UHGV virus genome: UHGV-0108392
Origin: a virus
DNA length: 26,514 bases
Direction: 5' to 3' (one strand)
Shown here: positions 6,783 to 26,514 of the stretch, in pieces
How positions within the stretch are numbered: position 1 is the stretch's first letter
Layout of the letters: the number at the start of each line of letters is the position of its first letter
The notes under the pieces: model-generated
Database searches by the model: none
What the model saw: only the letters and a program-made list of their open reading frames with translations
Told to the model about the DNA's origin: nothing
Translations under genes and position numbers: made by a program

Positions 6783-7564
6783 ACAACGTTTTTACCGCGA
6801 TACAAAACCGTGACGGAGAAGCCCTTTCTCGCATGTCAGGTTATGAGCATCAGTACACCAACAATGACAACGTGGTGAACATGTCAGCAGAGAGGCTTGT
6901 TGATGCCCTTTTCAAACAGCTGAAACAACTGTTTCCGGCGGCAGTGGTAACCAACCTGAAGACGCCAGAGCAGGAAGTTGCTGCAAAACAGCAGTGGATT
7001 GCTGCGTTTGCCGAAGGGGGGATCCGAACCCGTGAACAGGTTTCTGCTGGTATGCGCCACGCCCGCGCCAGTGAGTCTCCGTTCTGGCCGTCGCCAGGGC
7101 AATTCATCAAGTGGTGTAAAGACAGCAAGATGGTTCTTGGCGTCACCATTGACGATGTGATGGCGGAGTTTCACCGGTACAGCAAGGAAAAAAGTTTATA
7201 TCCTGGTGGTCCCGAAAGATTCCCGTGGCGACATCCGGTTATGTACTGGGTCGTATGTGATACCCGCCGTGCAATGTATCAGCGCCAGCTTAGCGAGATT
7301 GAGGTTGAGAAACACGCGCGCAGGCTGCTCGATGATTGGGCGAAAAAGGTAGCTTCCGGACAGCAGATACCCGATCCGGTGATCAGCATACAGGCAAAGC
7401 GAGAGCCCATGAGTACACCTCCGGACACAGGGAGAGACGTTTACCATCCACCAGGGCGAAGTTTCGGGTGCATGCCTAACGCCGCCACCCTTGGGGGAAT
7501 AACACCGGCGCAGTGGCTGATGGAGGAATACAGGCGGGGAAAGGCGGCAGGATTTATCAAGTAA
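6779..7564 (+). CDS. Replication protein P-like (DnaB helicase loader)
   Basis: Clear similarity to lambda P as recalled (REQVSAGMRHARASESPFWPSPGQFIKWCKDS versus lambda MEQVNAGMRVARRQNRPFLPSPGQFVAWCREE). A GTG at 6779 has a GGGAGG RBS and overlaps the O-like stop; an alternative ATG lies at 6764. Confidence 0.8.
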   Translation: MNNVFTAIQNRDGEALSRMSGYEHQYTNNDNVVNMSAERLVDALFKQLKQLFPAAVVTNLKTPEQEVAAKQQWIAAFAEGGIRTREQVSAGMRHARASESPFWPSPGQFIKWCKDSKMVLGVTIDDVMAEFHRYSKEKSLYPGGPERFPWRHPVMYWVVCDTRRAMYQRQLSEIEVEKHARRLLDDWAKKVASGQQIPDPVISIQAKREPMSTPPDTGRDVYHPPGRSFGCMPNAATLGGITPAQWLMEEYRRGKAAGFIK

Positions 7565-7602
7565 TACCAGCGCGATAGCGCATTTTTTTACGCCTCAATG
7601 AT

Positions 7603-7678
7603 TACCTATCAGGTAACAAAATATTCTAAACTCTATTGATTTCGTGTCTTATGTGGTTTTTAATTACCTAAGAGGTAA
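7603..7678 (+). promoter_or_regulatory. Promoter with two operator palindromes upstream of the nin-like gene cluster
   Basis: TTGATT (7636-7641), 17-bp spacer, TTTAAT (7659-7664). Perfect palindromes TTACCTATCAGGTAA (7603-7617) and TTACCTAAGAGGTAA (7664-7678) flank and overlap the -10/RBS. Confidence 0.5.
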
Positions 7679-7681
7679 ATC

Positions 7682-8026
7682 ATGAGAAAACAGATACAGG
7701 CTCTTGGTCGACTCAAAACAGGCCAGATGAACAAAACAGAATCTGCGTATTGCCAGCACCTTGAGCTGCGTAAACGTGCAGGAGAAATCGTCTGGTATCG
7801 ATTTGAGGGTATCAAGCTGCGGTTAGCTGACAACACGTTCTATACGCCCGATTTTGCTGTGATGCTCGCCACCGGCGAGATGGAACTGCACGAAGTGAAA
7901 GGTTTCTGGACCGACGACGCCAGGGTGAAAACCAAAGTCGCCGCAGATCAGTATCCGTTCCGAATCATCGGGGTAACGGTTAAACCAAAGAAAGCAGGTG
8001 GTGGCTGGAACATCGAAGAGTTCTGA
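7682..8026 (+). CDS. DUF1064-family protein (putative PD-(D/E)XK-like nuclease)
   Basis: 114-aa protein with the YTPDF...HEVKG motif pattern recalled for DUF1064 phage proteins. Confidence 0.55.
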   Translation: MRKQIQALGRLKTGQMNKTESAYCQHLELRKRAGEIVWYRFEGIKLRLADNTFYTPDFAVMLATGEMELHEVKGFWTDDARVKTKVAADQYPFRIIGVTVKPKKAGGGWNIEEF

Positions 8027-8087: not shown

Positions 8088-8588
8088 ATGGAAAGTAATA
8101 TCAAAGGGTTAGTTTCCGCCGGGCATGAGATGGCTTCGGAACTGAAAGCAGAATGTGGTGCCGTTGATATGCGCAGTGTGGCAAAGCTGATCAGCGATTT
8201 GGCAACGCAACTGGAAGTGCAACTGGTGCGTGCTAATGCGCTGGCCGAAGACCACCAGAAAGCGATTGAGTCAATTAAGCAGGCTGATTCGGCTGTTAAG
8301 TTGGCACACGAGAAGTTTTCAGCGCTGGCGGCGGAGAATGCTGGGCTGAAACATGCAATGGCTGTAACTCTTGAGCATGTGTCGGTCACGGATGCAGGGC
8401 AGGCTGGTGTTGCTGCAATGATTATCAACGATGCCCTACACCACAGCGAAACTCCAGCCACCGATGCTTTTCTGGCTGAAGTACGTGCGCAGGGCGTGGA
8501 GATGTTTGCGGAGTGTGCATACACACTTGAACATCATGATCACGCAGTAGCTTTTGCCGCCGAGCTACGTGAAGGAGGCAACAAGTGA
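8088..8588 (+). CDS. Hypothetical coiled-coil phage protein
   Basis: 166-aa Ala/Glu-rich ORF with RBS; no confident family assignment. Confidence 0.5.
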   Translation: MESNIKGLVSAGHEMASELKAECGAVDMRSVAKLISDLATQLEVQLVRANALAEDHQKAIESIKQADSAVKLAHEKFSALAAENAGLKHAMAVTLEHVSVTDAGQAGVAAMIINDALHHSETPATDAFLAEVRAQGVEMFAECAYTLEHHDHAVAFAAELREGGNK

Positions 8589-19904: not shown

Positions 19905-20509
19905 TGGCCTCTGTAGTAGAGATCTGTAATCGTGCGCTGTCCAATATTGGCAACAGCCGCAGCATTAACAGCCTGACGGAAGCCAGCAAGGAAGCGGGGG
20001 AATGTTCGCTGCATTTTGAGGCCTGTCGTGATGCTGTGCTTTCTGATTTTGACTGGAACTTTGCTACAAAACGCGTGGCGCTTGCAGATACGAGCAATCC
20101 ACCGCCTGACTGGGAATATGCGTACCAGTACCCTTCCGATTGTCTGCGCATTACTGAAATTATGCTTCCTGGTGTACGCAATCCAACAGCAGCAATGCGT
20201 GTTCAGTACGAAGTTGGTGCAGACACCAACGGAACAGGAAAATTGATCTACACAGACCAGCCGCAGGCATGGCTTAAGTATGTCTCTCGCGTTACAGATG
20301 TGAACATGTTTGATGCCATTTTTATGGAGGCGCTGGCCTGGCGTCTTGCGGCAGCTATTAACATGGCGCTGACTGGGAATGCAGACCTCGGTACGTTTGC
20401 CCTCAATATGTACAATCGCGTGATTCTTAGTGCTGGCTCGCATAGCCAGAATGAATCACAGGAACCACAGCCACCGGTTGATGAGTTTACCATTGCGAGG
20501 TTGTCCTGA
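19904..20509 (+). CDS. Tail tubular protein A-like (T7 gp11-like adaptor), tentative
   Basis: About 200 aa, same size class and position as T7 gp11; weak N-terminal pattern similarity (ALSNIGNSRSINSLTE versus T7 ILASIGEPPVSTLE as recalled). Confidence 0.45.
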   Translation: MASVVEICNRALSNIGNSRSINSLTEASKEAGECSLHFEACRDAVLSDFDWNFATKRVALADTSNPPPDWEYAYQYPSDCLRITEIMLPGVRNPTAAMRVQYEVGADTNGTGKLIYTDQPQAWLKYVSRVTDVNMFDAIFMEALAWRLAAAINMALTGNADLGTFALNMYNRVILSAGSHSQNESQEPQPPVDEFTIARLS

Positions 20510-22560
20510 TGGCTATCAGTTGGATCCAGCCCAGCTTTGCCGGTGGTGAGATTGGACCGTCGTTGTACGGTCGTATCGACATGGCGAAGTACCAGGTGGC
20601 ATTGCGCAAGTGCGATAACTTTATCGTGCGGCAGTATGGCGGCGTTGAGAATCGACCTGGTACGCGTTTTGTCGGTGCCGCCAAATACCCAAATCGGAAA
20701 TGCCGCCTGATCCCGTTCCAGTTCTCGACGGTTCAGACCTATGCTCTGGAGTTCGGGCACCAGTACATGCGCGTTATCAAAGATGGTGCGTTGGTGCTGA
20801 ACAGCAGCAATGTTATTTATGAAATTGCCACGCCATATACTGAAGCCGATCTGTTCCGAATTAAATTTACGCAAAGCGCCGACGTGCTTACGCTGGTTCA
20901 CCCGGCATACCCGCCGAAAGAGTTGCGCCGCTATGCGCATGACAACTGGCAACTGGTTGATGTGGTAACGAAGAACGGGCCATTTGAAGATATCAATATT
21001 GACGAGTCAGTGACGGTTTATGCCAGCGCCAGCACCGGGACAATTACGTTAACAGCAAGCGCCTCTATTTTTGGCGCGGAGCAGGTAGGCAAATTGTTCT
21101 ATCTGGAACAGCCTGCAGTGGATTCAGTGCCGGTATGGGAAACCAGTAAGAGTACGTCGATTGGCGATATTCGCCGTGCAGACAGTAACTACTATCGCGC
21201 CGTTACAGCAGGCAAAACAGGCACTTTGCGCCCTTCGCATACAGAAGGCACATCATGGGATGGCTGGGGCGGATCCGGTGATGATGATACTGGCATTGAG
21301 TGGGAATATCTGCACAGTGGTTTTGGCATTGCCCGTATCACTGCTGCAAATGGAACTACTGCAACTGCCGAGGTGATTTCCTATATCCCTTCGCAGGTCG
21401 TTGGCGAGGATAATGCCAGCTATAAATGGGCTAAATATGCCTGGAACAGTGTTAATGGTTATCCTGGCACTGTTGTTTATTATCAACAACGTCTTTACTT
21501 CGCCGCATCGACTGCGTTCCCTCAGACTATCTGGGCCAGCCGTACCGGGGATTATAAGGATTTTGGCAAAAGCAATCCTACGCAGGATGACGACAGAATT
21601 ATCTACACCTATGCCGGGCGTCAGGTTAATGAGATCCGCCACCTGATTGATGTCGGTTCGCTGGTGGCACTGACTTCCGGAGGTGAGTACGTCATCACCG
21701 GCGACCAGAACAAAGTGTTAACCCCATCATCATTTGCATTCAGCTCTCAGGGATCAAATGGCTCGAGCAATGTCCCACCAATTGCTGTGGCGAATATTGC
21801 TCTGTTCGTCCAGGAGAAAGGCAGCGTTGTCCGTGATCTGGCCTACTCATTCGATGTTGACGGCTATCAGGGGAACGACCTGACCATCCTTGCCAATCAT
21901 CTTTTTCAGAAGCACAGCATTGTTGACTGGTGCTTCTCGATTGTCCCTTACTCCAGCGCCTTCTGCATTCGTGATGACGGTAAATTACTGGTGATGACCT
22001 ATTTGCGTGATCAGCAGGTTTTTGCATGGGCACCACAGTCCAGTACCGGAAAATATGAAAGCACATGCAGTATCAGCGAAGGCAATGAAGATGCGGTGTA
22101 TTTCGTCGTTAACCGAACCGTTAACGGGCAAGCAGTGAGATACATCGAGAGACTGTCCAGCCGTTTATTTACCAGCGATGAAGACGCTTTCTTTGTTGAT
22201 TCTGGCCTTAGCTATGATGGAAGAAATACGTCTGACAGAACGATGATCATCACTGGTGGTTCTGGTGAATGGGATTACCGCGCGGAATATACAATCAGTG
22301 TTTCTGGTGGTGCGTACTTCACCAGTAGTGATGTCGGTGCGCAACTACAGTTCCCTTATGCCGGAACTGATCCTGATACTGGCGATGAAGTGTCAAAAGA
22401 ATTACGTTGCGACATTATTTCTGTAACCAGCAATACCGCTGTAGTGGTTCGTCCTAACAGGAACGTCCCGCCATCCCTCAGGAATGTGGCCACCACGAAC
22501 TGGCAGATGGCGCGCCGGGCATTTGGCGGCTTGTCTCATCTTGAAGGTCAGACCGTAAAC
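20509..22560 (+). CDS. Tail protein (tail tubular B / nozzle-like by synteny); phage-derived N-terminal ~684 codons of an ORF that runs in frame into foreign DNA
   Basis: Enterobacterial-type composition and codon usage up to about 22560; the same ORF (track 20509..24012) then continues in frame into lower-GC sequence, so the native 3' end is missing. Functional call is by gene order only. Confidence 0.45.
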
Positions 22561-22599
22561 ATGGATGAAGTCAATTTCTTTGCCAAGAGGATGAAAAGC

Positions 22600-24012
22600 A
22601 TGACGGAATATGAAAGAAAAGTTCTGTCAGCGTATGCTGAGGATTATGGTGTGGCTACCATGCAGGATTTAATCAATCTGACATTCAGCATGAAAGGTCT
22701 TTCATTGCTTACAGATTTTTCAGATGCCAGACAGGTCGGGGAACGTCTTTACTTGGATGAATTCTTGGGAATATCAGAAGAAGAAAAAGCGCAGACCAAC
22801 TTTATTGAGTTTGCGGAAAAAACCTTAAAGGAGAGCCGGGTGGAAGTCCTGCCCTATGGAGTTTTTGTAGAGCATGGCTTTGAAATGCAGGAAGTGTACA
22901 ATGGAAAAACATTTCCGTCTTTCGTTGCATCGGATGAGACTGTGGCAATTGTCGAGTTACAGAACAAAGCCGGAGATACAGAGTATCTGTACCTGCCAAC
23001 GGATATCAGTTCCATGAACAAGGTAAAGGAGCGGTTGCAGGTGCAGGATTATTGGGAGATGGAAGTAACCGGAATTGAAAACCTTCGTTTACCGGATATC
23101 CTTGTACCGATGCCGGAAAACATTGATTGTGTGGAAGCACTGACATTATTTAATGAGACATGTCAGGCGGTAAAACGTTTTGATGAAGTGCAGATGACGC
23201 AGCTTGCGATGGTGGTAGAATTTACCGGATTTAGTAGTTCTACTGAGGTGACAAGTATTGCAAGACTGCTTGGGGAATTTGAAGTGAATCCTTTCGTACA
23301 CAATGATGAAGAGTATGGAAAGTACATGGTGGAAGAGTCCGGGTTATTTGATGTGGATGAGTTATTGCTCCCTCATATTAATTATGCAGCCTTTGCAGCG
23401 GATAAGAGACAGGGAACACTTGTGCAAAGTGGTTATGTAGAAAATGGTTTTGTGGGAGCCACCAGAGAACTTTCAGAGTACCAGCAGTATAATGGAGAGT
23501 TTGCTGATCCGTTAGAAATTGATGAAGACTGCTATGAAACATTTAAACTTTATAGTCCGCTGACAGGAAATTTATTTGAAGGTGGCTGTGAGCGGGGAAA
23601 CTTATATCGTAGCGATCTGACACCGTATGCGGAGGAAATTGCAGAAACCATTGAAAATGAATATTGTGTCGGGGAAGAGCCAAGAGGTCTCATGCATTAC
23701 TTTGATAGAAGTCTGGTGGTGGCGGCGAAAGTAATGTCTGCATATCCCAAGGTAGAGATTGTGGATGGCGAAGTTTATGGTGTGCTGGAATGTAAAGTCA
23801 GTGAAGCATTAACAGAGCATGATATTGAAGTGTTAAAGGAATATTGGACCGGACAGATGAGTGACGGATGGGGTGAAGGCTTTGAACAGCATCCAATTTT
23901 AGTAGAGGACGGAGAAATCTATGTCAGTTTTTGGAACAGCGAGAATTTCTGGAATGTTATGACCGAGGAGGAACTGATGGGAGGACAGGTTCAGGGAATG
24001 GATATGTGCTAA
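22600..24012 (+). CDS. Hypothetical acidic protein, Firmicutes-type (about 470 aa if it starts at ATG 22600)
   Basis: AAGAGG RBS 9 nt before ATG 22600; Glu/Asp/Tyr/Phe-rich; GAA/GGA/AAG-heavy codon usage unlike the upstream phage genes. The true N-terminus may lie upstream of the junction. Confidence 0.4.
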   Translation: MTEYERKVLSAYAEDYGVATMQDLINLTFSMKGLSLLTDFSDARQVGERLYLDEFLGISEEEKAQTNFIEFAEKTLKESRVEVLPYGVFVEHGFEMQEVYNGKTFPSFVASDETVAIVELQNKAGDTEYLYLPTDISSMNKVKERLQVQDYWEMEVTGIENLRLPDILVPMPENIDCVEALTLFNETCQAVKRFDEVQMTQLAMVVEFTGFSSSTEVTSIARLLGEFEVNPFVHNDEEYGKYMVEESGLFDVDELLLPHINYAAFAADKRQGTLVQSGYVENGFVGATRELSEYQQYNGEFADPLEIDEDCYETFKLYSPLTGNLFEGGCERGNLYRSDLTPYAEEIAETIENEYCVGEEPRGLMHYFDRSLVVAAKVMSAYPKVEIVDGEVYGVLECKVSEALTEHDIEVLKEYWTGQMSDGWGEGFEQHPILVEDGEIYVSFWNSENFWNVMTEEELMGGQVQGMDMC

Positions 24013-24068
24013 TAAATATATTGAATCCGCCTAAAGAAAAGAATCAAGGAGATTGAGGAAGGAGAATC

Positions 24069-24815
24069 ATGTTAAGAAGAGAAGAAGTAGAACGCATTAA
24101 GGAACAGTACCCGAAAGGTACGCCCATTCGTCTTTACAGCATGGAAGGGGAGCAGACAGTGCCGCCGGGGAGCCGGGGAGTTGTAGACCATGTGGATGAC
24201 ATCGGGCAAATCCATATGAAGTGGGAGAACGGAAGCTCCCTTGCATTAAATGTGGAAGAAGACCGCTTCGATATCATCACACAGCAGGATGAATTATGTG
24301 AAAAGAAAGAGCAGGAGTTTATTGACAAGATAAATGAAATCTTGGACAAGACAGATTTCCTGCTCTTAAATACGTCCTGTAATACGGAGAATACATCCTA
24401 TGCTGCCGAGAAGCTCCTTGCCATGCATCAGGCATTCGAGGAAGTGTATGGAGAAGGGTATGTGGATGAAAGCTATGGTATGATTATGGTGCCTGCGGTG
24501 GTAAGAGGAAGGGAATCCGGCATACAGACCCTTGCGTTGGTAACACTGGACTTGGAATCATCCGGTGAGCATTGGGGTACTACATTCCTTACACCGGGAG
24601 GACCATTGGTGCAGGGACATGCAGAGCTTACGGAGGAGCAGAAGCGTGCCATCAGGGAATACTATATTCCCTACGATTATTGGTACACACCACTCGTTGA
24701 ACGTGACCACCATGTGAACTTTACGGATATGCCGGAGACAGTTGCAGACATCCGCAGGCTGGTGGATGAATCCTTGGTGACAGGACAGGCACAGCAGATG
24801 GAGGGACCGAAATAA
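24069..24815 (+). CDS. Hypothetical protein, Firmicutes mobile-element type (possibly DUF4314-like N-terminus)
   Basis: GGAGGAAGGAG RBS; N-terminus (IKEQYPKGTPIRLYSMEGEQTVPPGSRGVVDHVDDIGQIHMKWENGSSLAL) resembles a small domain I recall from Firmicutes conjugative-element proteins. Family assignment is from memory and uncertain. Confidence 0.45.
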   Translation: MLRREEVERIKEQYPKGTPIRLYSMEGEQTVPPGSRGVVDHVDDIGQIHMKWENGSSLALNVEEDRFDIITQQDELCEKKEQEFIDKINEILDKTDFLLLNTSCNTENTSYAAEKLLAMHQAFEEVYGEGYVDESYGMIMVPAVVRGRESGIQTLALVTLDLESSGEHWGTTFLTPGGPLVQGHAELTEEQKRAIREYYIPYDYWYTPLVERDHHVNFTDMPETVADIRRLVDESLVTGQAQQMEGPK

Positions 24816-24832
24816 AGGAGAGGAGGACATAA

Positions 24833-25834
24833 TTGAATAGCATTATCAGTTGGGTAGGCGGTAAGAAGGCACTCCGTGACCTGATATACCTGAGAATGCC
24901 GGGGCACTATGACCGCTACATAGAAGTATTTGGCGGAGGCGGATGGGTTTTATTTGGAAAGCCGCCTGATAAATGTATGGAGGTTTACAATGATTTCAAT
25001 TCGAATCTTGCAAACCTCTTTTATTGTGTCAAGGAAAGACCGATGGCACTGCTTCGGGAATTGTCTTTCCTGCCGCTTAACTCCAGGGATGAGTTTGTGA
25101 CACTCAGGAAATTCCTTACGATGGAAGAATTCAAAAGTGAGCATCTGGCAGAGGAACTGGAGATAGCAACTCATTTTCTGAAAGAGCCGGAGGCAGCGGA
25201 AATTTGTGACATCCTTATGGAACGAGCAGTAGTCGGGGATGTGAAAAGGGCGGCGGCCTTTTATAAGATTATCCGCTACAGCTATGGAAGTGGCTGTACC
25301 TCTTATGGGTGCCAGCCATTTGACATAAGGAAGACCTTTACTATTCTCTGGGAGGCAAACCGGAGGTTAAAAGATACCGTGATTGAAAATAAAGATTTTG
25401 AGGCACTCATCCGTCAGTATGACAGACCGAATGCCTTTTTTTATTGCGATCCACCGTATTTTGAAACCGAAGGGCATTATGAAGTGGTGTTCCGTAAAGA
25501 AGACCATGTAAGACTTAGGGATACGCTGGCAGGCATCGAGGGAAAATTCATGGTCTCCTACAATGACTGTGAGTACATCAGGGAATTGTATCAGGACTTT
25601 CAGATTGAAGCGGTAACACGAATCAACAATCTAGCACAGCGCTATGATAACGGAAGTGAGTTTCCGGAGGTGCTGATTGCCAACTATGACATGGAAGAAA
25701 GAAGAAAGAGCCTGCCGATGCAGATGAATCTGTTTGAAATGTTTGATGAGCAGAAGACTTCTGTGTGGCATGGCAGTAGCAGGAAGGAGGACGAAGATGG
25801 TTCAGTTAGTCGAGATAACAGGAGTGCTGAATGA
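24833..25834 (+). CDS. Dam-type (D12 class) N6-adenine DNA methyltransferase
   Basis: N-terminal SWVGGKK motif and DPPY catalytic motif (FFYCDPPYFE); TTG start with AGGAGG RBS. Confidence 0.8.
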   Translation: MNSIISWVGGKKALRDLIYLRMPGHYDRYIEVFGGGGWVLFGKPPDKCMEVYNDFNSNLANLFYCVKERPMALLRELSFLPLNSRDEFVTLRKFLTMEEFKSEHLAEELEIATHFLKEPEAAEICDILMERAVVGDVKRAAAFYKIIRYSYGSGCTSYGCQPFDIRKTFTILWEANRRLKDTVIENKDFEALIRQYDRPNAFFYCDPPYFETEGHYEVVFRKEDHVRLRDTLAGIEGKFMVSYNDCEYIRELYQDFQIEAVTRINNLAQRYDNGSEFPEVLIANYDMEERRKSLPMQMNLFEMFDEQKTSVWHGSSRKEDEDGSVSRDNRSAE

Positions 25835-26246
25835 AAAAGGCTGTATTGAAATTCCCATTGTATTGCTTGCACAGACAGGCATCTGTATCGGGGAGGAGGT
25901 AAATCTGATTTATCTTGCCGCAGGGGAGAAGGATTACCGTAATGAATCAAGGGAATTCATGTTGAAAAGAGCCGGGGAAAATCCATTGGAGGAGCTGCAG
26001 AGTGGGGAAACGGAGTTGAAACTGCCGCCACAGTTGCTTGCAGATGCACACATTCCCTTGGATGCAGACCTGGACATTGTCTGCTTGGATAGAAAAATTG
26101 TGATTCTGCCTACGGAGGATGTGGAGTCAGAGGATGTACCCAAAGAACTTCTGGATATCTGTGCAGAGCTTGGCATCCCCAGAGAAAAAGTAAACATTGT
26201 TTTGCGTATGACCGAGGAGGGGAGCGATGAAAAAGCCGGTGTATAA
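25797..26246 (+). CDS. Protein with two AbrB/SpoVT-like (swapped-hairpin) segments
   Basis: ATG at 25797 with GGAGGA RBS, overlapping the methyltransferase 3' end; two segments (IEIPIVLLAQTGICIGEEVNL and ELKLPPQLLADAHIPLDADLDIVCLDRKIVILP) resemble AbrB/MazE-type DNA-binding hairpins. Confidence 0.45.
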   Translation: MVQLVEITGVLNEKGCIEIPIVLLAQTGICIGEEVNLIYLAAGEKDYRNESREFMLKRAGENPLEELQSGETELKLPPQLLADAHIPLDADLDIVCLDRKIVILPTEDVESEDVPKELLDICAELGIPREKVNIVLRMTEEGSDEKAGV

Positions 26247-26514
26247 GCTGTTAGATGAAAAGGGCAGGGTACTGATACCTTTGGAAATGCGACAAAAAGC
26301 GGAGATGGAGAAAGGGGATATCTTAAAGGTTTCCATAAACTCCGGGAAGATTGTTATATCCAAGGTAGACATTTTAGAGGTAGGAAAGCAGGATGCAGAA
26401 GCTGTGGAGGCTTATGTCCATGCAGCCGTAAAGACCATGAGCCATGAAAAGCAGGTGGCACTTGCCGCGAGGATTTTGAAACTTGCACAGCAGGAGGGAG
26501 GAGCGGATTGCTAA
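26227..26514 (+). CDS. AbrB/SpoVT/MazE-family small DNA-binding protein
   Basis: VYKLLDEKGRVLIPLEMRQKAEMEKGDILKVSINSGKIVISKV matches the AbrB-type swapped-hairpin pattern; overlaps the upstream gene by 20 nt; its stop codon is the last 3 nt of the window. Confidence 0.5.
   Translation: MKKPVYKLLDEKGRVLIPLEMRQKAEMEKGDILKVSINSGKIVISKVDILEVGKQDAEAVEAYVHAAVKTMSHEKQVALAARILKLAQQEGGADC

Follow-up and report, generated by a model that had tools for sequence, protein, structure and literature searches.

The Locus and Its Two Sources

The window, that is the whole stretch of 26,514 nucleotides of the virus genome UHGV-0108392 that was analyzed, consists of DNA from two unrelated sources, an Escherichia coli prophage part and a part from an integrative conjugative element (ICE) of Lachnospiraceae. 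Bases 1–22562 are those of a phiV10-type E. coli prophage, and bases 22541–26514 have 100% identity to the left end of one ICE. The phage part ends in a phiV10/epsilon15-type tail gene (20509–22562, + strand) that has 98% identity to phiV10-like phages and stops exactly at 22562. This gene encodes 823 aa in phiV10 (gp15); its first 684 codons are present here and the last 139 are missing. At the join, GC content drops from 0.51 to 0.44 and the GC skew jumps.

Between 22600 and 26514, five co-oriented and closely packed reading frames were found on the + strand, in agreement with an initial annotation made from the letters alone. That annotation had also placed a separate 470-aa gene from 22600, which did not hold: the frame extends upstream without a stop as far as 20509 and forms one ORF of 1167 aa. 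The five genes are a real, Firmicutes-derived block and not chance ORFs, since 1090 blocks of the public collection contain an identical copy of the DUF4314 protein. The matches of the block were checked for enterobacterial phage genes and were not such genes. Annotated relatives of the block were absent from phage and plasmid collections, which contained only short unannotated virome fragments. No Rfam families and no meaningful repeat structure were found in the block, and promoter-like and terminator-like sites occurred at chance level.

Proteins of the Block

The first frame contains the 3′ part of an ArdA-family gene (22541–24012, + strand), covering native residues 53–542 with 100% identity to positions 8473–9944 of L002. 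The copy in the window lacks the start codon and the first ~52 codons of the native protein (P0001, 542 aa). Profile matches indicate that the 542-aa protein is an ArdA-family member, with an ArdA (PF07275) domain at native residues 204–353 (22993–23442, + strand). The native protein scored 30.2 bits against Pfam ArdA, only just above the cut-off of 27, and the truncated, fused copy only 25.6 bits. All of the 25 relatives tested matched Pfam ArdA (best E 1.9e-11), and a 392-aa relative reached 61 bits. What had been taken for a domain-less protein of 470 aa, and for the best candidate for an undescribed role, is the C-terminal 483 residues of the 542-aa protein, the product of a 5′-truncated ArdA-family gene. 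Its acidity was confirmed, with a pI of about 4.2–4.3, a net charge of -61 and every 50-residue block negative, a feature of composition only. The C-terminal module of ~155 residues (native ~385–540; 23536–24003, + strand) has no family match, and is found in other proteins by itself or in fusions with DUF4314 or DUF3848. ArdA was at or near the top in both fold searches with the 542-aa protein (model pLDDT 60), and fold evidence is weak because the AlphaFold2 models are poor. PDB sequence and profile searches with this protein returned nothing meaningful (ovalbumin and dUTPase at E > 0.2). Comparisons with hhalign revealed no internal repeats among its N-terminal, ArdA and C-terminal regions, and the C-terminal module has no similarity to the tail of the DUF4314 protein.

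The DUF4314 protein (24069–24815, + strand) has 248 aa, with the domain at residues 4–70 (Pfam E 3.4e-27), as the initial annotation had assigned, and no assignment for the rest of the chain. It matches phrog_3782 and phrog_2431, two families of unknown function. No solved relative of the protein was found, and the searchable literature library contained no mention of DUF4314. The next gene (24833–25834, + strand, TTG start) encodes a 333-aa protein that is, by profile and motifs, an orphan D12-class N6-adenine DNA methyltransferase. The earlier Dam-type assignment agrees with its match to PF02086 (MethyltransfD12; E 1.5e-27, 97.4 bits, cut-off 22). It carries the SAM-binding motif FGGGG at residue 33 and the catalytic motif DPPY at residue 206, and DpnM is the nearest of its solved relatives (2dpm, E 9e-18). 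Against the curated Dam subfamily TIGR00571 it scored 90.4 bits, below the cut-off of 114.85. The claim that no endonuclease is adjacent was borne out, as endonuclease models matched no neighbor, whether within the window or at the native locus. In addition, nuclease families were absent among genes up to 10 kb on either side at native loci, and PADLOC matched the block to methyltransferase models only.

Both overlaps described earlier were found: the methyltransferase gene overlaps the following gene (25797–26246, + strand) by 38 nt, and this gene overlaps the last one (26227–26514, + strand) by 20 nt. The former encodes a 149-aa acidic protein with two putative AbrB-like half-domains (~8–41 and ~70–108) and a helical tail. 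The two AbrB-like hairpins proposed for it are weakly supported. The top matches in a PDB profile search were 2glw (E 0.15) and 7d2n (E 0.74), which are not significant, and hhalign aligned the halves in the expected register with P 0.0025–0.004 and a probability of about 10%. The gene contains a DNA-level repeat 171 nt apart, and the AlphaFold2 model of the protein (pLDDT 47) was unusable. The last gene encodes a 95-aa basic protein of probable AbrB/SpoVT/MazE type. The AbrB/MazE-like nature claimed for it is reflected in sub-threshold scores: 26.3 bits (E 4e-6) against TIGR01439, with a cut-off of 28.3, and 21.7 bits against Pfam MazE_antitoxin, with a cut-off of 24.7. It also matched the AbrB N-domain in the PDB (1z0r, E 9e-4) and the antitoxin family phrog_4681 (E 1e-7). 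These AbrB-type matches are mutually consistent, with each profile score below its curated cut-off.

The Junction between Phage and ICE

The two parts meet in a 22-mer, TTGAAGGTCAGACCGTAAACAT (22541–22562, no strand assigned), which is native to both parents. Both the tail gene of the E. coli 2013C-3033 prophage and the L002 ICE gene contain it, in an identical frame that gives (L/F)EGQTVN. When the phage part was compared with 23 kb of the ICE, no longer exact match was found; the second-longest is 14 nt, and the random expectation is 6e-5. A T at 22548 was considered as coming from the ICE side, which would leave a microhomology of only 7–14 nt, and this was rejected because the T is also present in a natural E. 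coli prophage. The junction lies in sequence common to the two parents and cuts short the gene on either side, as in a chimera. It is located 1057 nt inside the ICE and not at the integration end, and also inside the phage tail gene. The resulting ORF (20509–24012) is in frame and joins the 684 tail codons to codons 60–542 of the 542-aa ICE gene.

The join is most probably a misjoin in a low-coverage metagenome assembly, as deduced from the anatomy of the junction and not from read mapping. The window corresponds to the initial 26.5 kb of a SPAdes metagenome contig of low coverage, where phage and ICE were apparently connected at the exact 22-mer that they share, a length equal to one edge in a de Bruijn graph with k=21. 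The two genes that meet there are truncated and read through as a meaningless 1167-aa fusion. The source contig is recorded with 2 samples, possibly not independent, an observation that was counted against misassembly.

A biological origin, in which a phiV10-like prophage took up a Firmicutes ICE fragment by microhomology-mediated illegitimate recombination and so gained a tail-ArdA fusion gene, could account for the in-frame fusion and the 22 nt of perfect microhomology, and is nevertheless extremely improbable. It would require a donor and a recipient from different phyla. The fusion protein is known from one contig only, NODE_105_length_31728_cov_2.55 of ERZ1303912, and is a singleton at a k-mer coverage of 2.55. 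Neither product at the junction would be functional, because the tail gene loses its 139 codons and the ICE gene its start. The phage part is matched in 524 of 5426 complete E. coli genomes, none of these 524 carries the block, and no complete genome in the whole set (n = 5426) matched the block itself; searches for the junction in viral and JGI metagenome contigs were also negative. Moreover, the ICE piece stops after 8861 nt (8.9 kb) at another unrelated junction on the same contig, where it passes, within a gene, into a reversed gut-Firmicute metA. At this second junction 7 bases match neither parent, and the exact assembler mechanism is therefore uncertain. These non-templated or unmatched bases are not predicted by a pure k-mer collision and favor an in vitro chimera, a molecule formed by template switching or amplification in library preparation and not in the assembler graph; template switching, too, happens at short identities. 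Such a molecule is still rather unlikely, as the overlap is exactly 22 nt, one edge of the first k=21 graph of SPAdes, the 22-mer is the single longest match of the two sources, and graph misjoins are favored by very low coverage. A misassembled join, together with a restriction-evasion and establishment module of an ICE in its true context, is very probably the correct reading of the window as a whole.

The Parent Element

By its exact matches, the block is cargo of an ICE of human-gut Lachnospiraceae. The proposal that it is cargo of a Firmicutes conjugative or integrative element proved sound: the exact sequence is present in Lachnospiraceae genomes and gut metagenomes, beside Tad-pilus and type IV secretion genes. 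The identical block was found in five GTDB genomes, four from named Lachnospiraceae plus a MAG with the label Ruminococcus sp. In at least seven Lachnospiraceae backgrounds the ICE sits within the 3′ end of a rumA-like gene; seven different left flanks each end in a rumA-like gene, and the identity of the element begins at the same base. Serine-integrase ICEs that integrate into rumA have been documented (PMC4701971). In its native setting the block occupies the region 1.06–5.0 kb from the ICE's left end, the element being inserted at the 3′ end of a rumA-type gene for an rRNA methyltransferase. The block is read inward, with the orientation of the Tad-pilus and type IV secretion genes that follow downstream.

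The ICE was examined over ~24 kb from its left end. A TrbL/VirB6-like gene and a VirB4-like ATPase gene are found at 15–20 kb into the element, and a relaxase and an oriT were not located within the ~24 kb. Just past the window, a 79-aa gene overlaps the 95-aa gene by 7 nt; its product matched no toxin family. Other toxin-antitoxin genes (HipA_C and MNT/HEPN) are present downstream. The observed/expected ratio of GATC is 0.27 in the ICE versus 1.10 in the host flanks, and depletion of GATC, CGCG and GCGC is specific to the ICE.

Proposed Function of the Block

The block is most likely an ordinary anti-restriction and establishment module that serves the ICE in restriction evasion and early regulation. 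The initial annotation had suggested such a module, and the ArdA domain and the orphan methyltransferase strengthen this suggestion. The 542-aa acidic protein would block Type I restriction enzymes by mimicking DNA, and the orphan D12 methyltransferase would pre-methylate the DNA of the element to protect it from Type II enzymes. Both AbrB-type proteins may be DNA-binding regulators of their own operon, and the DUF4314 protein an accessory factor. These biochemical activities, and an early (“leading-region”) timing of expression, are what we infer for the block.

It is possible, though unlikely, that the block is mainly concerned with maintenance and regulation, with the methyltransferase as an epigenetic regulator, the 95-aa protein as an antitoxin and the product of the overlapping 79-aa gene as its toxin. 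The antitoxin PHROG and MazE_antitoxin matches of the 95-aa protein, the 7-nt overlap of its gene with a gene of no known family and the HipA_C and MNT/HEPN genes downstream are consistent with this role. The lack of a toxin-family match for the 79-aa protein argues against it, and restriction evasion is favored by the ArdA domain as well as by the depletion of GATC, CGCG and GCGC that is specific to the element. The maintenance and anti-restriction roles are not mutually exclusive. A tentative extension of the anti-restriction module, held at low confidence, is that the 542-aa protein is a polyvalent anti-defence protein in which the ArdA DNA mimic is combined with an N-terminal region and a promiscuous C-terminal module that neutralize further defence systems, with the DUF4314 protein as an anti-defence factor linked to it in function, not yet described and common across gut Clostridia ICEs.

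Implications

Because the join is an artefact that cuts through two genes, which the initial annotation had not noticed, the window says nothing on a link between the block and its phage neighbor. It provides no evidence for gene flow between E. coli phages and Firmicutes, nor for a novel tail-fibre fusion, and the case is a warning on low-coverage metagenome contigs. The ICE that carries the module is very common and recently spreading in human-gut Lachnospiraceae, with identical sequence across many host backgrounds. Anti-restriction modules of this kind are already known. The enlarged ArdA-family protein, the orphan methyltransferase and the unstudied DUF4314 protein are reasonable, if unsurprising, targets for work on restriction evasion by gut conjugative elements.

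Comparison with Known Systems

Inter-genome chimeras of short-read metagenomes share with the window a join at a common k-mer, very low coverage, an abrupt change in composition, genes cut on both sides and a second junction on the same contig; no feature sets the window apart from them. The parent element resembles the rumA-targeting serine-integrase ICEs, among them streptococcal ICEs and CTn5 of C. difficile (PMC4701971), in that its start lies within the 3′ end of a gene for a 23S rRNA (uracil-5)-methyltransferase and it brings a substitute for that end, here in 7 host backgrounds. It differs from them by a Tad-type pilus locus besides the VirB4/VirB6-like genes. With ArdA (Orf18 of Tn916, PDB 2W82) the large protein has in common the profile match over native residues 204–353, the strong acidity and carriage by a Firmicutes conjugative element. 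ArdA is a stand-alone protein of ~165 aa, whereas the protein of the ICE, at 542 aa, is three times the size of characterized ArdA and has an extra N-terminal region of ~200 residues and the C-terminal module of ~155 residues. The methyltransferase shares the D12 profile and the FxGxG and DPPY motifs with DpnM/Dam-type (D12) enzymes, and differs in that it falls below the Dam-subfamily cut-off, has no partner endonuclease and belongs to an ICE that is itself GATC-poor.

Samuel et al. (2024; PMC11541004) have described leading-region anti-defence islands in which ArdA, orphan methyltransferases and antitoxin-like genes are typical. No SSB or PsiB-type gene was seen here, and the element is a gut Clostridia ICE and not a plasmid. 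The block has the gene repertoire of these islands, with ArdA, an orphan methyltransferase, antitoxin-like small proteins and uncharacterized families, all in one orientation.

Origin of the sequence and of the junction

The window evidently combines two unrelated sources, an E. coli phage and a Firmicutes integrative conjugative element (ICE). Over positions 1-22562 it shares ~98% identity with phiV10/epsilon15-type podophages of E. coli (genus Uetakevirus). This identity breaks off abruptly at 22562, behind codon 684 of the tail gene gp15, which has 823 codons. Some part of the segment (1-22562) was also matched by 64 Synechococcus phage records in the phage search. At the end of the phage match the GC content changes from ~0.51 to 0.44 and the GC skew jumps. 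The 3974 nt from 22541 to the end of the window recur with 100% identity in contigs of five independent gut metagenome assemblies, in which the first gene encodes a complete protein of 542 aa; the window keeps residues 53-542 only. The phage and ICE identities both cover the 22-mer TTGAAGGTCAGACCGTAAACAT (22541-22562), and the two genes share its reading frame. Both parents have it natively: it occurs in the tail gene of a prophage of E. coli 2013C-3033 (the reference phiV10 differs at one base) and was found in all native ICE copies examined. The phage part and 23 kb of the ICE have no longer exact match in common; the second longest has 14 nt, and chance alone would give a 22-mer match 6e-5 times in this comparison.

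Judged from the sequences, the juxtaposition of phage and block and the 1167-aa open reading frame that it creates are evidently artefacts, since a contig that switches within genes between three unrelated pieces, at a coverage of 2.5, has the look of a mis-assembly. The 1167-aa fusion protein is recorded on one contig only (ENA ERZ1303912 NODE_105_length_31728_cov_2.553942), which has a SPAdes-style name and a k-mer coverage of 2.55 and whose initial 26514 bases make up the window. The join lies 1057 nt inside the ICE, away from the ICE's own integration end, and costs the ICE gene its start and the phage tail gene its last 139 codons. NODE_105 exits the ICE again after 8861 nt at a second chimeric junction beyond the window (20893/20894 of locus L017, which lies on this contig; ~31401 of NODE_105), where a TadZ-like gene is interrupted and ICE identity ends. 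The contig closes with ~320 nt of metA (homoserine O-acyltransferase) on the reverse strand, a gene that 32 other gut metagenome contigs have in ordinary native context. Seven bases at the second junction, AACGTGG, match neither parent. The phage-ICE junction was found neither in IMG/VR nor in JGI metagenome contigs. Matches to the phage part came from 524 of 5426 complete E. coli genomes, and matches to the block from none. In length the shared 22-mer equals a single edge of a de Bruijn graph with k=21, the first k that SPAdes takes by default, and the assembler may have misjoined the two sources there. That the junction is a real recombinant is very improbable; it keeps a slight chance because the index entry for NODE_105 gives '2 samples' and because the misjoin was judged from the anatomy of the junction.

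The native element

In its native setting the block belongs to what appears to be a recently spread ICE of gut Lachnospiraceae, as indicated by its presence in five GTDB species genomes and by its varied host flanks. The five genomes, which share a 48-mer of the block, are those of Suilimivivens aceti and Waltera hominis (both Lachnospiraceae in the NCBI taxonomy), two Lachnospiraceae MAGs and one 'Ruminococcus sp.' MAG. The left host flanks are of seven different types, and an identical copy of the DUF4314 protein of the block is indexed in 1090 blocks of a public collection. Identity between contigs starts at one point inside a rumA-like gene, no more than ~50 nt before its end, so that the element supplies a new 3' end to this gene. 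Serine-integrase ICEs targeting rumA have been reported from streptococci and include CTn5 of C. difficile (PMC4701971); the present element behaves alike at the rumA 3' end. At the left end of the ICE (7416-7717 of the native contig L002, outside the window), a GC-rich hairpin, GGCGGTAC...GTGCCGCC, is followed by a T-run, TTATTTTTTT, and then directly by the first ICE gene, whose 202-aa product has no family.

The gene order is constant in ten long contigs, with all genes co-oriented. A rumA-type (tRNA_U5-meth_tr) methyltransferase is followed by the genes for the 202-aa protein, the 542-aa protein, the DUF4314 protein, a D12 methyltransferase, proteins of 149, 95 and 79 aa, YodL, SpoVG, DUF6133, a second SpoVG and a prepilin peptidase, then by an HTH + HipA_C pair (missing in one contig, L004, only) and a Tad-like pilus locus with RcpC, a TadZ-like protein and a TadA-like ATPase. 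An MNT/HEPN pair, a TrbL/VirB6-like gene, a 510-aa C5 DNA methyltransferase and a VirB4-like ATPase lie deeper in the ICE. The complete Tad-type pilus locus sits among transfer genes. The downstream cargo of defence/anti-defence type (L002 14880-16221; 14040-14727 and 16157-17689 of L050, another native contig) includes the HTH + HipA_C kinase pair, the MNT/HEPN (NTP_transf_2 + HepT-like) pair and the 510-aa C5 enzyme, a second orphan methyltransferase of the ICE.

Genes of the block

The initial annotation, made from the sequence alone, had described five tightly packed, co-oriented frames at 22600-26514, and these are present on the + strand. Its separate 470-aa gene from an ATG at 22600 did not hold, as the frame is open upstream to the ATG at 20509 and encodes 1167 aa. 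The following + strand frames encode the 248-aa DUF4314 protein (24069-24815), the 333-aa methyltransferase (24833-25834; TTG start preceded by a good ribosome-binding site), a 149-aa protein (25797-26246 in public gene calls; 38-nt overlap with the preceding gene) and a 95-aa protein (26227-26514; 20-nt overlap). The 95-aa gene, stop codon included, ends on the last base of the window. It is overlapped by 7 nt by the ICE gene that follows, which encodes a 79-aa protein of no family, begins at 26508 and is cut by the window end (26508-26514). No Rfam family was found in the block. Promoter-like and terminator-like sites were only as frequent as in shuffled sequence, and the + strand had 0 terminator-like sites; this absence, together with the chance-level promoter-like sites, fits a single transcription unit.

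The 542-aa protein has a pI of 4.3 and a net charge of -61, and is negative over its whole length. It had been described as an acidic protein with no assignable domain, which proved wrong: the native form matches Pfam ArdA at residues 204-353 with 30.2 bits (gathering score 27). The ArdA match was obtained in all 25 relatives tested, and a 392-aa relative comprising the first two-thirds only gave an E value of 2.6e-16. When 1.84 billion representative proteins were searched with a profile, 2790 relatives were obtained, and these revealed two modules. Positions 1-353 correspond to many proteins of 380-400 aa, and positions 385-540 occur alone, after DUF4314 or beside DUF3848. This C-terminal module (window 23536-24003, + strand; native residues ~385-540) is promiscuous in the representative library, standing alone in proteins of 124-190 aa, directly after a DUF4314 domain in P0444 and P0495, and in proteins of 660-730 aa that also bear DUF3848. 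The ArdA part is the only one with a family assignment; the N-terminal ~200 residues have none, and neither family nor fold could be assigned to the C-terminal module. Public assemblies hold more aberrant versions of the ArdA-family gene (records P0004, P0029, P0020 and P0006). In two of them the gene is fused, to an unrelated C-terminus in one (671 aa) and to a C5 methyltransferase in the other (623 aa); the others are an in-frame internal deletion (414 aa, 3 contigs) and an insertion (572 aa). Such versions reflect either additional assembly errors or genuine rearrangements of the ICE.

The assigned part of the DUF4314 protein is limited to its N-terminal 70 residues, and our searches found no solved relative of the protein and no literature on DUF4314. 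The methyltransferase belongs to the D12 class, and its FxGxG and DPPY motifs are intact. It had been called an orphan of Dam type. The orphan status stood, since no nuclease lies in its neighbourhood; as to type, its nearest solved relative is DpnM, and its score falls below the curated Dam-subfamily cut-off.

The 149-aa protein, for which two AbrB-like hairpins had been proposed, matched no family. Its family profile had 2glw (double swapped-hairpin) and 7d2n (AbrB/MazE) as top matches, neither of them significant. An alignment of its two halves to one another and to the 95-aa protein falls in the register expected (P ~0.003). The two putative hairpins are plausible. Its gene carries a 20-nt direct repeat (25863-25882 and 26034-26053, 75% identical, 171 nt or 57 codons apart) spanning the motifs LLAQTGI and LLADAHI, apparently a DNA-level trace of the internal duplication. 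The 95-aa protein is basic (pI 8.7) and gave consistent matches to AbrB/SpoVT/MazE N-terminal domains, each just under the curated threshold.

Apparent restriction-site avoidance and proposed function

Site ratios were calculated for the native ICE (L002 7416-20747 and L050 10550-20549, which includes window 22541-26514). The observed/expected ratio of GATC was 0.27 in the ICE (26 vs 95.5 expected) and 1.10 in the host flanks. The corresponding ratios were 0.21 and 0.70 for CGCG, and 0.45 and 1.02 for GCGC. This depletion looks like passive restriction-site avoidance. It is curious beside a Dam-like methyltransferase and a C5 methyltransferase.

Overall, the observation in the initial annotation was partly confirmed and its interpretation partly supported. 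The block is an ordinary module of a known kind in a common gut ICE, and mild novelty is confined to the DUF4314 family, which is unstudied, and to the ArdA-family protein with its enlarged size and modular build. As we infer the activities of its proteins and the timing of their expression, the ArdA-family protein would titrate Type I restriction enzymes, the orphan methyltransferase would protect the ICE's DNA and the AbrB-type proteins would control the operon. Possibly the 95-aa protein makes up a toxin-antitoxin pair with the product of the 79-aa gene that follows it, a reading that partly competes with anti-restriction; however, the 79-aa protein matches no toxin family. [quoted passage not shown]
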